Positions 32,783-37,353 of a DNA stretch of 64,000 nucleotides are shown here, piece by piece. Position 1 is the stretch's first letter. Each line of letters opens with the position of its first letter. This DNA comes from Escherichia coli (GTDB taxonomy: Bacteria > Pseudomonadota > Gammaproteobacteria > Enterobacterales > Enterobacteriaceae), in assembly GCF_016903815.1 (NCBI RefSeq), contig NZ_CP069973.1; one strand, written 5' to 3'. The translations under genes were made by a program, and so were the position numbers. The notes below the pieces were generated by a model, which ran no database searches, was not told where the DNA came from, and worked only from the letters and a program-made list of their open reading frames with translations.

Positions 32783-34729
32783 ATGAATATTTTAGGTTTT
32801 TTCCAGCGACTCGGTAGGGCGTTACAGCTCCCTATCGCGGTGCTGCCGGTGGCGGCGCTGTTGCTGCGATTCGGTCAGCCAGATTTACTTAACGTTGCGT
32901 TTATTGCCCAGGCGGGCGGTGCGATTTTTGATAACCTCGCATTAATCTTCGCCATCGGCGTGGCATCCAGCTGGTCGAAAGACAGCGCAGGTGCGGCGGC
33001 ACTGGCGGGTGCGGTAGGTTACTTTGTGTTAACCAAAGCGATGGTGACCATCAACCCGGAAATTAACATGGGTGTACTGGCGGGTATCATTACCGGTCTG
33101 GTCGGTGGTGCAGCCTATAACCGTTGGTCCGATATTAAACTGCCGGACTTCCTGAGCTTCTTCGGCGGCAAACGCTTTGTGCCGATCGCCACCGGCTTCT
33201 TCTGTCTGGTGCTGGCGGCCATTTTTGGTTACGTCTGGCCGCCGGTACAGCACGCTATCCATGCAGGCGGCGAGTGGATCGTTTCTGCGGGCGCGCTGGG
33301 TTCCGGTATCTTTGGTTTCATCAACCGTCTGCTGATCCCAACCGGTCTGCATCAGGTGCTGAACACCATCGCCTGGTTCCAGATTGGTGAATTCACCAAC
33401 GCGGCGGGAACGGTTTTCCACGGTGATATCAACCGCTTCTATGCCGGTGACGGCACCGCGGGGATGTTCATGTCCGGCTTCTTCCCGATTATGATGTTCG
33501 GTCTGCCAGGTGCGGCGCTGGCGATGTACTTCGCAGCACCGAAAGAGCGTCGTCCGATGGTTGGCGGGATGCTGCTTTCTGTTGCTGTTACTGCGTTCCT
33601 GACCGGTGTGACTGAGCCGCTGGAATTCCTGTTCATGTTCCTTGCGCCGCTGCTGTACCTCCTGCACGCACTGCTGACCGGTATCAGCCTGTTTGTGGCA
33701 ACGCTGCTGGGTATCCACGCGGGCTTCTCCTTCTCTGCGGGGGCTATCGACTACGCGTTGATGTATAACCTGCCGGCCGCCAGCCAGAACGTCTGGATGC
33801 TGCTGGTGATGGGTGTTGTCTTCTTCGCTATCTACTTCGTGGTGTTCAGTTTGGTTATCCGCATGTTCAACCTGAAAACGCCGGGTCGTGAAGATAAAGA
33901 AGATGAGATCGTTACTGAAGAAGCCAACAGCAACACTGAAGAAGGCCTCAATCAACTGGCGACCAACTATATTGCTGCGGTTGGCGGCACTGACAACCTG
34001 AAAGCAATTGACGCCTGTATTACTCGTCTGCGCCTGACCGTGGTTGACTCGGCTCGCGTCAACGATGCGATGTGTAAACGGCTGGGTGCTTCTGGGGTAG
34101 TGAAACTGAACAAACAGACTATTCAGGTGATTGTTGGCGCGAAAGCGGAATCCATTGGCGATGCAATGAAGAAAGTTGTTGCCCGTGGTCCGGTAGCCGC
34201 TGCGTCAGCTGAAACTGCGCCTGCAACTGCCGCGCCTGTAGCAAAACCGCAGGCTATACCAAACGCGGTGTCTGTCGCGGAGCTGGTATCGCCGATTACC
34301 GGTGATGTTGTGGCACTGGATCAGGTTCCTGACGAAGCATTCGCCAGCAAAGCGGTGGGTGACGGTGTGGCGGTGAAACCGACAGATAAAATCGTCGTAT
34401 CACCAGCCGCAGGGACAATCGTGAAAATCTTCAACACCAACCACGCGTTCTGTCTGGAAACCGAAAAAGGCGCGGAGATCGTCGTCCATATGGGTATCGA
34501 CACCGTAGCGCTGGAAGGTAAAGGCTTTAAACGTCTGGTGGAAGAGGGCGCGCAAGTAAGCGCAGGGCAACCGATTCTGGAAATGGATCTGGATTACCTG
34601 AACGCTAACGCCCGTTCGATGATTAGCCCGGTGGTTTGCAGCAATATCGACGATTTCAGCGGCTTGATCATTAAAGCTCAGGGCCATGTTGTGGCGGGTC
34701 AAACACCGCTGTATGAAATCAAAAAGTAA
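32783..34729 (+). CDS. nagE: PTS N-acetylglucosamine-specific EIICBA component NagE (648 aa)
   Basis: N-terminal polytopic EIIC, EIIB Cys motif (CITRLR) and C-terminal EIIA domain. Confidence 0.92.
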   Translation: MNILGFFQRLGRALQLPIAVLPVAALLLRFGQPDLLNVAFIAQAGGAIFDNLALIFAIGVASSWSKDSAGAAALAGAVGYFVLTKAMVTINPEINMGVLAGIITGLVGGAAYNRWSDIKLPDFLSFFGGKRFVPIATGFFCLVLAAIFGYVWPPVQHAIHAGGEWIVSAGALGSGIFGFINRLLIPTGLHQVLNTIAWFQIGEFTNAAGTVFHGDINRFYAGDGTAGMFMSGFFPIMMFGLPGAALAMYFAAPKERRPMVGGMLLSVAVTAFLTGVTEPLEFLFMFLAPLLYLLHALLTGISLFVATLLGIHAGFSFSAGAIDYALMYNLPAASQNVWMLLVMGVVFFAIYFVVFSLVIRMFNLKTPGREDKEDEIVTEEANSNTEEGLNQLATNYIAAVGGTDNLKAIDACITRLRLTVVDSARVNDAMCKRLGASGVVKLNKQTIQVIVGAKAESIGDAMKKVVARGPVAAASAETAPATAAPVAKPQAIPNAVSVAELVSPITGDVVALDQVPDEAFASKAVGDGVAVKPTDKIVVSPAAGTIVKIFNTNHAFCLETEKGAEIVVHMGIDTVALEGKGFKRLVEEGAQVSAGQPILEMDLDYLNANARSMISPVVCSNIDDFSGLIIKAQGHVVAGQTPLYEIKK

Positions 34730-34777
34730 TCTGCTTTATACCTGATGCGACACGGCAGCGTCGCATCCAACAATGAC

Positions 34778-34809
34778 AAGCGGTGGAGATCTTCTCTGCC
34801 GCTTTTTTT
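34778..34809 (+). terminator. Probable native nagE terminator (aagcgg...ccgcttttttt), preceded by a REP-like palindrome at 34744..34767
   Basis: 6-bp stem plus T7 run; the palindrome gatgcgacacggcagcgtcgcatc sits immediately upstream. Confidence 0.45.
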
Positions 34810-35518
34810 GTGCACAGAAAACCCCCAGCTAGGCTGGGGGTTCCGGAAAGCTTTCAGCTTTAAGCCAGTTATTAAAACCCCTTTTGATTTGTTAAAACAC
34901 CTTGCGGTCTGGCAACTGCAAGTGTCAAACAAGAAATCAAAAGGGGGTCCCAATGGGGAACGAAAAGAGCTTAGCGCACACCCGATGGAACTGTAAATAT
35001 CACATAGTTTTTGCGCCAAAATACCGAAGACAGGTGTTCTACAGAGAGAAGCGTAGAGCAATAGGCAGTATTTTGAGAAAGCTGTGTGAGTGGAAAAGTG
35101 TACGGATTCTGGAAGCTGAATGCTGTGCAGATCATATCCATATGCTTGTGGAGATCCCGCCCAAAATGAGCGTATCCGGCTTTATGGGATATCTGAAAGG
35201 GAAAAGCAGTCTGATGCTTTACGAGCAGTTTGGTGATTTGAAATTCAAATACAGGAACAGGGAGTTCTGGTGCAGAGGGTACTACGTCGATACGGTGGGT
35301 AAGAACACGGCGAAGATACAGGATTACATAAAGCACCAGCTTGAAGAGGATAAAATGGGAGAGCAGTTATCGATTCCCTATCCGGGCAGCCCGTTTACGG
35401 GCCGTAAGTAACGAAGTTGGATGCAAATGTCAGATCGTGTGCGCCTGTTAGGGCGCGGCTGGTAAGAGAGCCTTATAGGCGCATTTGAAAAACCTCCGGC
35501 TATGCCGGAGGATATTTA
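34808..35518 (+). mobile_element. IS200-family insertion sequence (IS200/IS605 family); boundaries approximate (about ±15 bp)
   Basis: Contains an IS200-type tnpA; left-end hairpin aaaaccccc-agctaggct-gggggtt (34817..34842) and right-end hairpin cctccggc-tatg-ccggagg (35493..35511); length about 710 bp fits IS200; flanked by the nagE terminator and the glnS promoter. Confidence 0.8.
34953..35411 (+). CDS. tnpA: IS200 transposase TnpA (HuH Y1 transposase, 152 aa from MGNEKSLAHTRWNCKYHIVF)
   Basis: HuH motif (HIHMLVEIPP) and catalytic-Tyr region (GYYVDTVG); near-identical to IS200 TnpA as recalled; the track ORF starts 17 codons upstream. Confidence 0.88.
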   Translation: MGNEKSLAHTRWNCKYHIVFAPKYRRQVFYREKRRAIGSILRKLCEWKSVRILEAECCADHIHMLVEIPPKMSVSGFMGYLKGKSSLMLYEQFGDLKFKYRNREFWCRGYYVDTVGKNTAKIQDYIKHQLEEDKMGEQLSIPYPGSPFTGRK

Positions 35519-35559
35519 TTTTTCATCAATCATCCCCATAATCTCAGTGAGATTTTCGA

Positions 35560-35643
35560 TTTTCACTAACTAACAGTTGTCAGCCTGTCCCGCTTATAAG
35601 ATCATACGCCGTTATACGTTGTTTACGCTTTGAGGAATCCACG
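35560..35643 (+). promoter_or_regulatory. glnS promoter and 5' leader, retained downstream of the IS200 right end
   Basis: Sequence ttgtcagcctgtcccgcttataagatcat offers candidate -35/-10 elements about 60 bp upstream of the glnS ATG; inference. Confidence 0.4.
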
Positions 35644-37308
35644 ATGAGTGAGGCAGAAGCCCGCCCGACTAACTTTATTCGTCAGATCATCGATGAAGAT
35701 CTGGCCAGTGGTAAGCACACCACAGTACACACCCGTTTCCCGCCGGAGCCGAATGGCTATCTGCATATTGGCCATGCGAAATCTATCTGCCTGAACTTCG
35801 GGATCGCCCAGGACTATAAAGGCCAGTGCAACCTGCGTTTCGACGACACTAACCCGGTAAAAGAAGATATCGAGTATGTTGAGTCGATCAAAAACGACGT
35901 AGAGTGGTTAGGTTTTCACTGGTCTGGTAACGTCCGTTACTCCTCCGATTATTTTGATCAGCTCCACGCCTATGCGATCGAACTGATCAATAAAGGCCTG
36001 GCGTACGTTGATGAACTGACACCGGAACAGATCCGCGAATACCGCGGCACCCTGACGCAGCCGGGTAAAAACAGCCCGTACCGCGACCGCAGCGTTGAAG
36101 AGAACCTGGCGCTGTTCGAAAAAATGCGTACCGGTGGTTTTGAAGAAGGTAAAGCCTGCCTGCGTGCGAAAATCGACATGGCGTCGCCATTTATCGTAAT
36201 GCGCGATCCGGTGCTGTACCGCATTAAATTTGCTGAACACCACCAGACTGGCAACAAGTGGTGCATCTACCCGATGTACGACTTCACCCATTGCATCAGC
36301 GATGCGCTGGAAGGTATTACGCACTCTCTGTGTACGCTTGAGTTCCAGGACAACCGTCGCCTGTACGACTGGGTGCTGGACAACATCACCATTCCTGTTC
36401 ACCCGCGCCAGTACGAATTCTCGCGCCTGAATCTGGAATACACTGTGATGTCCAAGCGTAAGCTGAACCTGCTGGTGACCGACAAGCACGTTGAAGGCTG
36501 GGATGACCCGCGTATGCCGACCATTTCCGGTCTGCGTCGTCGTGGTTACACTGCGGCTTCTATTCGTGAGTTCTGCAAACGCATCGGTGTGACCAAGCAG
36601 GACAACACCATTGAGATGGCGTCACTGGAATCCTGCATCCGTGAAGATCTCAACGAAAATGCGCCGCGCGCAATGGCGGTTATCGATCCGGTGAAACTGG
36701 TTATCGAAAACTACCATGGCGAAGGCGAAATGGTCACCATGCCGAACCATCCGAACAAACCGGAAATGGGGAGCCGTCAGGTGCCGTTTAGCGGTGAGAT
36801 TTGGATCGATCGCGCCGATTTCCGCGAAGAAGCTAACAAGCAGTACAAACGTCTGGTGCTGGGTAAAGAAGTGCGTCTGCGTAATGCTTACGTCATTAAG
36901 GCTGAACGCGTGGAGAAAGATGCCGAAGGCAATATCACCACCATCTTCTGTACTTATGACGCCGACACCTTAAGCAAAGATCCGGCAGATGGTCGTAAAG
37001 TCAAAGGTGTTATTCACTGGGTGAGCGCGGCACATGCGCTGCCGGTTGAAATCCGCCTGTACGATCGTCTGTTCAGCGTGCCGAACCCAGGTGCTGCGGA
37101 TGATTTCCTGTCGGTGATTAACCCGGAATCGCTGGTGATCAAACAGGGCTTTGCTGAACCGTCTCTGAAAGACGCGGTTGCGGGTAAAGCATTCCAGTTT
37201 GAACGTGAAGGTTATTTCTGCCTCGACAGCCGCCATTCCACTGCCGAAAAACCGGTATTTAACCGCACCGTAGGGCTGCGTGATACCTGGGCGAAAGTAG
37301 GCGAGTAG
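35644..37308 (+). CDS. glnS: Glutamine--tRNA ligase GlnS (554 aa)
   Basis: HIGH (HIGHAKS) and KMSKS-like (VMSKR) class I motifs. Confidence 0.93.
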
Positions 37309-37321
37309 TTTTAAGTTCTAC

Positions 37322-37353
37322 CAGGCCGGGTGAGGTATTCACGCCGCATCCGG
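37322..37353. repeat. REP element downstream of glnS
   Basis: aggccgggtgaggtattcacgccgcatccggc matches the REP pattern. Confidence 0.55.

Follow-up and report, generated by a model that had tools for sequence, protein, structure and literature searches.

In Yersinia pestis, the insertion sequence (IS) IS1541 was reportedly found by Odaert et al. in 1998 next to terminator-like stem-loops at 8 of 14 sites, and these were proposed to be insertion hot spots. The terminator-proximal habit of this group of elements is thus already known in kind. It is also visible as a statistical signal in a preprint (10.1101/2025.07.22.666184). Members of the IS200/IS605 family join their left end 3' of a 4-5 nt target, and the guide sequence for this target lies just 5' of the left-end hairpin (PMC6006769; PMC5027513). 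The family prefers the lagging-strand template (PMC5027513). IS608 tolerates a duplex on the 5' side of its target, and under Ssb such a duplex brings back part of the cleavage and strand-transfer activity, whereas a duplex 3' of the target hampers the reaction (PMC5027513). In this study we analysed 64,000 nucleotides of Escherichia coli DNA (contig NZ_CP069973.1; this whole stretch is called the window below), in which an IS200 element lies inside the nagE-glnS intergenic region. The initial annotation of the window had pointed to three hairpins at the left junction of this element and had suggested that the junction may record a preference of IS200 for repetitive extragenic palindrome (REP) or terminator-like structures. 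We consider it probable that the nagE junction records the normal target choice of the IS200 group, which is a terminator-like hairpin together with a T-rich motif in single-stranded DNA. The suggested preference is therefore supported for the terminator hairpin, given the insertion into its T-run and the junction survey described below. It is not supported for the REP-like palindrome, which ends 43 nt before the insertion point and is separated from it by the terminator.

The insertion point was located by comparison with empty sites. In K-12 the empty site reads ...CTCTGCCGC-T9-CATCAATCATCC..., and both K-12 and strain EFF60 carry the sequence GCCGC-T9-CATCAAT. The NagE and GlnS proteins of EFF60 are identical to those of strain 7/2, the flanks are identical as well, and T9, the REP-like palindrome and the terminator are intact in the EFF60 empty site. 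The filled site, found in 93 out of 5426 complete genomes of E. coli and 100% identical to the window in strain 7/2, reads T7, then GTGCAC...ATATTTATT(T), then TT-CATCAAT. The IS (34810-35520, or 35521 with the ambiguous T) split the T-run of nagE after its seventh T. The insertion point is 7 nt past the last G:C pair of the nagE terminator stem, and there is no target duplication. As the initial annotation implied, the terminator was there before the element and adjoins the insertion point in both K-12 and EFF60. The possibility that the hairpin and the T-run travel with the IS was rejected, as they differ at every site and are already present in the empty sites. The parts of the locus, in window coordinates, are as follows.

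32783-34729, + strand: coding sequence of nagE, which lies upstream of the IS in the same orientation (list of open reading frames (ORFs); the identical locus of strain 7/2 as annotated by RefSeq)
34744-34767, no strand: REP-like perfect palindrome with 8-bp arms and an 8-nt loop, which predates the insertion, as both the K-12 and the EFF60 empty sites contain it
34778-34804, + strand: predicted stem-loop of the nagE intrinsic terminator, 12 pairs including G-T, 6 of them G:C, with a 3-nt loop; also in the empty sites
34803-34809, + strand: T7, the left part of the terminator T-run and the target tail; the insertion point is between 34809 and 34810
34810-35521, + strand: IS200C element of 711-712 bp, GTGCAC...ATATTTATT plus one ambiguous T (empty-site alignment; RefSeq name IS200C)
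34817-34821, + strand: A-rich end of the leader, GAAAA, adjoining the CCCCC core of the hairpin on its 5' side; a candidate guide for the T-rich target
34820-34842, + strand: IS200 left-end subterminal hairpin, the published bidirectional terminator at nts 12-34 of IS200 (PMC4513863)
34878-34946, + strand: stem-loop in the tnpA 5' untranslated region (5'UTR) which keeps the Shine-Dalgarno sequence sequestered (folded here; PMC4513863)
34953-35411, + strand: tnpA, coding for the 152-aa Y1 HUH transposase (Pfam Y1_Tnp; RefSeq annotation)
35493-35521, + strand: IS200 right-end hairpin (the hairpin itself at 35493-35511) with its T-rich tail ATATTTATT(T), which ends TTATT
35522-35523, + strand: TT, the right part of the split nagE T-run, followed by CATCAAT as in the empty site
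35577-35605, + strand: promoter-like site upstream of glnS, a consensus match only, intact and 56 nt downstream of the IS
35644-37308, + strand: glnS coding sequence, the downstream gene

The identical transposase protein is encoded at many places, and the ten loci returned gave nine further distinct E. coli sites. In every one of these nine, a G+C-rich hairpin with a T-rich tail directly abutted GTGCACAGAA. Seven of the sites were aligned to K-12 empty sites (guaA, uhpT, galU, fabF, pheP, yccU and kdsA), and in each of the seven the IS had simply entered the T-tail of a hairpin that was already there, or the end of that tail, with either 0 or +1 T. With the nagE site included, no target-site duplication was detected in any of the eight filled/empty pairs. 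The yccU-hspQ site is unambiguous: GGGGATTTGTT precedes the IS and CAGGGATT follows it. This boundary therefore fixes the IS ends as GTGCAC...ATATTTATT. The right flank was unstructured at 9 of the 10 E. coli sites. The IS copies at different E. coli sites are only 0-5 single-nucleotide differences apart, which points to a recent expansion of IS200C in this species.

Several details of individual right and left junctions were recorded alongside. The extra T at window position 35521 recurs at the right junctions of the loci listed as L005, L006 and L007, where the right end can be read as ...TATT or ...TATTT; it may reflect slippage of the cleavage register for an element sitting in a T-run. 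In other E. coli strains (L005 compared with K-12 3845730-3845995, listed as L137) IS200C lies directly after the terminator common to uhpT and UhpU, the small RNA from its 3' untranslated region. In the strain with IS200C after pheP (L008 compared with K-12 around 603340, listed as L138), the 13 nt AACCATCCGAAAC are missing; in K-12 they are present just upstream of the pheP terminator hairpin.

The generality of this arrangement was evaluated by scanning species-representative genomes with the 19-nt left-end hairpin, which gave at least 120 stretches. After removal of duplicates and of matches in a different context from the listed matches, and with the E. coli sites added, 110 distinct left junctions were available. 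They represented E. coli, Y. pestis (IS1541), Vibrio, Brenneria, Edwardsiella, Pluralibacter, Budvicia, Oxalobacter, Mailhella/Desulfovibrio, Bacillota, Peptococcaceae, Saccharibacteria and Elusimicrobia. Among these 110 listed junctions, T occupied position -1 of the left flank in 110, -2 in 109, -3 in 72, -4 in 94 and -5 in 105 cases, giving the consensus TTnTT. When the last 45 nt before the IS were folded as DNA, the median energy was -10.75 kcal/mol at the junctions versus -3.1 kcal/mol at T-rich control sites, and a fold of -5 kcal/mol or better was found at 105 of the 110 junctions (95%) versus 25% of these controls. The only listed junction that lacked an evident hairpin was L035. The spacing between the last G:C pair of the stem and the IS was most often 6 nt (35 sites) or 7 nt (29 sites), followed by 8 nt (13), 9 nt (13) and 5 nt (8). 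Intergenic TTnTT sites in 160 kb of E. coli served as a second control: a hairpin followed by a spacing of 5-9 nt was present at 85% of the junctions compared to 20% of these sites (binomial p ~2e-48). All ten E. coli sites had the hairpin at this spacing, and six out of six distinct sites of Salmonella IS200F, which were gathered separately, fitted the same pattern. Thus, junctions elsewhere do, with very few exceptions, carry the flanking hairpin that the initial annotation led one to expect. Moreover, the insertion position seems to be measured from the stem, because in reconstructed empty sites with long T-runs registers of 6-8 nt had been used although those of 5-10 nt were available.

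The same pattern could in principle arise if IS200 recognised its target by sequence only, i.e., any TTnTT, and selection afterwards kept those copies that were harmless or in which a terminator shields tnpA from read-through. Terminator-like sequences are indeed over-represented upstream of IS elements, most strongly in IS200/IS605, and this has been read as a way of limiting transposase expression (10.1101/2025.07.22.666184). In addition, only fixed insertions were analysed here, and about 72% of the junctions have the neutral position expected behind a gene, with a co-oriented ORF ending upstream of them at a median distance of 63 nt. When insertions interrupting long ORFs were sought among 33 complete copies, no convincing case was found. 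Nevertheless, selection acting on sequence-only insertions does not explain a hairpin at 5-9 nt in 85-100% of junctions as opposed to 20% of intergenic TTnTT sites, a fourfold excess, or the 6-7 nt spacing being held even within long T-runs. The element also already possesses a terminator of its own at the left end (PMC5435999), and the near-identity of the E. coli copies leaves little time for weak selection. We regard this explanation as unlikely.

The insertions also showed an orientation bias. At all nine E. coli sites that could be mapped on K-12, the IS and the upstream gene were co-directional with replication, the direction of which follows from the positions that we take oriC and dif to have. 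The sites at nagE, pheP, the prfH region, yccU, fabF, kdsA and galU are on the + strand between 0.25 and 1.29 Mb, and those at guaA (2.63 Mb) and uhpT (3.85 Mb) are on the - strand. Across taxa, the GC skew of the upstream flank, taken in the orientation of the IS, was positive at 66 of 80 loci (p = 3e-9). Inside the 64-kb window itself GC skew was too noisy to indicate the direction of replication, which is why the sites were mapped to K-12 instead. The orientation bias fits the lagging-strand-template preference of the family, and it argues for the replication fork as the main source of single strands. When the longest upstream ORF was simply taken as the gene, upstream genes in G+C-rich genomes often looked divergent; once codon position was considered in the call, most of them turned out to run the other way.

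Transcription offers another possible source of single-stranded target DNA. According to this explanation, RNA polymerase that pauses or terminates at the U-tract would expose the non-template T-run, the hairpin that matters would be formed in the RNA, and the site of termination would be where the IS enters. Intrinsic terminators release the RNA about 6-9 nt after the stem, and insertion 6-9 nt past the stem coincides with this release point; in most cases it is the upstream gene's sense strand that carries the T-run. IS608 insertions are also enriched in the highly transcribed rrn operons (PMC5027513). On the other hand, the replication bias (9 of 9 E. coli sites, 66 of 80 loci by GC skew) looks stronger than a bias for the gene strand alone would make it. 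In E. coli, about 55% of genes are co-directional with replication. A minority of the sites also seem to have no co-oriented upstream ORF, which is weak evidence in the same direction. Overall, it is improbable that the junctions owe their position to transcription.

The target choice that we favour, with the hairpin formed in single-stranded DNA, would proceed in the following way. A single-stranded IS circle would be pasted into host DNA that is itself single-stranded, most likely the replication fork's lagging-strand template, and would enter it just 3' of a TTnTT-type motif situated about 6-7 nt downstream of a G+C-rich hairpin, i.e., within the structure of an intrinsic terminator. At nagE, the terminator would have supplied the hairpin and T9 the motif, with the IS entering after the seventh T. 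The T-rich motif may be read by the A-rich leader (GAAAA) located 5' of the left-end hairpin, by analogy with the guide of IS608; in almost all of the 110 junctions the left-end leader ends in an A-rich run, and a few Mailhella variants end in C. The folded stem directly 5' of the target would keep the T-tail accessible. Since IS608 tolerates a duplex 5' of its target and is hampered by one placed 3' of it, a terminator stem followed by a free T-tail would represent a favourable geometry. Alternatively or additionally, the hairpin, the T-rich tail and TTnTT may together mimic the element's own right end, which terminators resemble because it consists of a G+C-rich hairpin followed by ATATTTATT and ends in TTATT. 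We infer from the natural insertions that the transposase may read the hairpin in addition to the adjacent T-rich motif. The REP-like palindrome and the IS's own hairpin would have no part in target choice.

We propose more tentatively that structure and sequence are combined in the target, so that a G+C-rich hairpin followed 6-7 nt later by TTnTT is treated as a surrogate right end; at present this seems possible but rather doubtful. If true, integration would amount to an exchange of the circle junction's true right end with a pseudo right end, and every intrinsic terminator on the lagging-strand template would be a ready-made harmless landing site. It would also constitute a second mode of target recognition in the family, beside the guide-read tetranucleotide of IS608 and ISDra2.

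Several observations weigh against these proposals. Intragenic insertions are known in the IS200 group (hisD984, inv::IS1541 and caf1A::IS1541), and a terminator is accordingly not obligatory. All junctions analysed are fixed natural insertions, so survivorship is possible, and since genes themselves tend to be co-directional with replication, the bias in orientation is confounded in part. The register of insertion is ambiguous by 1-2 nt, since the flank and the right end both finish in TT, and about half of the filled E. coli sites have one extra T relative to the empty sites. A full mimic of the right end would predict an A-tract 5' of the target hairpin, but this was present in 49% of cases versus 41% of generic terminators (p = 0.07) and is thus not significantly enriched. 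Furthermore, the target hairpins share no sequence or loop, which makes it doubtful that the target is bound in the sequence-specific hairpin pocket of TnpA. Finally, in IS608 an adjacent duplex did not stimulate integration without Ssb (PMC5027513).

Some of the surveyed loci contain unusual arrangements of the ends themselves. In tandem copies of IS1541 and of the Mailhella element, the right end of one copy forms the left flank of the second. Such head-to-tail tandems were seen at L108, L109, L111 and L125 (Y. pestis NCTC5923) and at L087 (Mailhella massiliensis), and the joint reads ATATTTATT(T) followed directly by GTGCCCAG. These may be cases in which a right end served as a terminator-like target, or else dimers with a joint resembling a circle junction; the right-end/left-end junctions of the Y. 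pestis tandems are compatible with a single-stranded circular intermediate but do not prove it. In Dickeya undicola (L085, match at 699-717 on the - strand) a solitary 45-nt perfect palindrome, TGTCTATAGAAAA-CCCCCAGCTAGGCTGGGGG-TTTTCTATAGACA, was found without tnpA. It is composed of the left-end leader, the hairpin and the inverted leader, lies right after a terminator-like hairpin with a short T-run, and could be a remnant or a hairpin-only mini-element. An identical 19-nt hairpin, CCCCCAGCTAGGCTGGGGG, also occurs in L096-L106 (the Ruminococcus metagenome-assembled genome RUG14215) and in L040, L043, L076 and L083. In these metagenome-assembled genomes of Firmicutes and Elusimicrobiales a 9-nt tail (ATGCTTATT and similar) comes after it, with variable flanks beyond, and judged from this layout it seems to be the right-end hairpin of a different IS200-like element.

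Returning to the window, all three hairpins described in the initial annotation are present within 100 bp, at 34744-34767, 34778-34804 and 34820-34842. When 34730-34960 was folded as single-stranded DNA, the energy was -56.6 kcal/mol compared to -29.9 +/- 3.5 kcal/mol for shuffled sequences (z = -7.7). The middle hairpin, AAGCGGTGGAGA-TCT-TCTCTGCCGCTT followed by the T-run, was picked up by the terminator scan; its stem is G+C-rich, is on the sense strand and begins 49 nt past the nagE stop codon. With the T-run, it has the layout of an intrinsic (Rho-independent) terminator and is the predicted terminator of nagE. The T7 run that had been assigned to this terminator is real, but it is only the left part of a T9 split by the IS. 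The third hairpin, AACCCCCAGC-TAG-GCTGGGGGTT, has a perfect 10-bp stem. It had been placed immediately after the T-run; the hairpin is there, but the IS begins 10 nt before it, with GTGCAC... at 34810. Because this third hairpin is a part of the IS itself, the stacking of the three is incidental. It also forms the initial 23 nt of a full-length match to the Rfam family STnc490 (34820-34943; 146 bits versus a gathering score of 56). This match is on the tnpA-sense strand, starting from the left-end hairpin, and the small RNA in the literature (art200) is antisense to the tnpA 5'UTR.

The first hairpin is the one that could have drawn the element to a REP. Its arms, GATGCGAC and GTCGCATC (34744-34751 and 34760-34767), are fully complementary over 8 bp around the 8-nt loop, and its 5' half, CCTGATGCGACAC at 34741-34753, matches what we take to be the REP 5' motif, which occurred 10 times in the window versus 1.6 times expected. 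On the 3' side the outer arm is divergent (GCATCCAAC), while the inner stem pairs perfectly. At the place of this palindrome, the K-12 record has neither a REP nor another repeat feature. From its letters, 'REP-like' appears to be a fair label for it. A canonical REP motif, CCGGATGCGGCGT, is situated just downstream of glnS (37341-37353, - strand) and is among the approximately ten matches in the window. Insertion directed by the palindrome would be in line with this 5' motif, with the resemblance of IS200/IS605 ends to REPs and with the action of related Y1 enzymes on REPs (PMC3333891). However, the palindrome is 43 nt away, beyond the terminator, and in all other junctions it is the proximal hairpin with the T-rich tail that abuts the IS. 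Only 1 of 25 Salmonella IS200 copies is next to a REP, and the IS elements that target REPs are from other families (PMC1525189). We therefore consider the involvement of the palindrome very improbable. A chance meeting of three unrelated hairpins is hardly credible, even if a REP and a terminator are often found together in short intergenic regions of enterobacteria and one of the three hairpins belongs to the IS, as it is refuted by the survey, with the same arrangement at 10 of 10 E. coli sites and about 95% of the 110 listed junctions.

The element itself is an ordinary IS200-group member of the IS200/IS605 family, in which all the defining features that could be tested were found. The tnpA product matches Pfam PF01797 (Y1_Tnp) over residues 11-129 (E = 3.8e-38), the HIH motif is visible in the transposase at CADHIHMLVEIPP, and the RefSeq annotation of the identical locus is 'IS200/IS605-like element IS200C family transposase'. 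The element lacks terminal inverted repeats, its ends being GTGCAC... and ...ATATTTATT, and there is a subterminal hairpin at each end. The right-end hairpin is CCTCCGGC-TAT-GCCGGAGG, followed by ATATTTATT, and the terminator scan calls this end terminator-like. The layout of the 5' region, with the left-end terminator hairpin, the 5'UTR stem and the art200/STnc490 region, agrees with that described earlier (PMC4513863), and the left-end terminator of IS200 is said to stop about 85% of incoming transcripts (PMC5435999). No other IS200 copies were found in the 64-kb window for a comparison of junctions. A weak partial match to the Rfam family Ysr202, a Yersinia small RNA (35488-35573, - strand; 29.7 bits, far below its gathering score of 315), overlaps the hairpin of the right end, probably because an IS1541 end is included in the family model.

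For this window the insertion matters little, as it is neutral and lies between the nagE terminator and the promoter-like site of glnS. The targeting rule is of wider interest. It would explain the frequent harmlessness and long persistence of IS200 copies, it allows the landing sites of new copies to be predicted, and it turns the left flanks of IS200 into a catalogue of terminator-like hairpins. A HUH transposase that reads DNA structure in its target would also bear on the steering of such enzymes, and of their TnpB-carrying relatives, to harmless sites. In its tighter form (about 95% of sites, TT at the junction, a spacing of 6-7 nt, several phyla) the rule may go beyond published work.

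Comparison with other systems places the window element closest to IS200 and IS1541, which are likewise about 710 bp long and have a single Y1 HUH transposase gene, no target duplication, a left-end hairpin doubling as a terminator, a stem-loop in the 5'UTR and a hairpin at the right end; there is no essential difference between them. A similar strategy has been adopted by group IIC introns, which according to Robart, Seo and Zimmerly (2007) reportedly insert just downstream of the stem-loops of intrinsic terminators by recognising the DNA stem-loop. They share with IS200 the harmless site after genes, but they are retroelements that use a ribozyme and a reverse transcriptase and have no HUH transposase, and the resemblance is one of strategy rather than ancestry. 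IS elements that target REPs (IS1397, ISKpn1, IS621) and the REP-associated Y1 transposases are comparable in using extragenic palindromic hairpins as targets or substrates. The REP-targeting elements belong, however, to the families IS3, IS110, IS4, IS256 and IS5 (PMC1525189), and the palindrome in the window is not at the insertion point. With IS608 and ISDra2, the element shares the single-strand 'peel and paste' mode, the left end being joined 3' of a guide-read target of 4-5 nt. Both of these prefer the lagging-strand template, and the A-rich leader and T-rich target of IS200 fit the guide logic. The difference is that the targets of IS608 and ISDra2 (TTAC and TTGAT) are described as sequence-only, whereas the target of IS200 has, almost constantly, a hairpin at a short and fixed distance as its second feature, and its motif is the same as the terminal motif of the element's own right end (TTATT).

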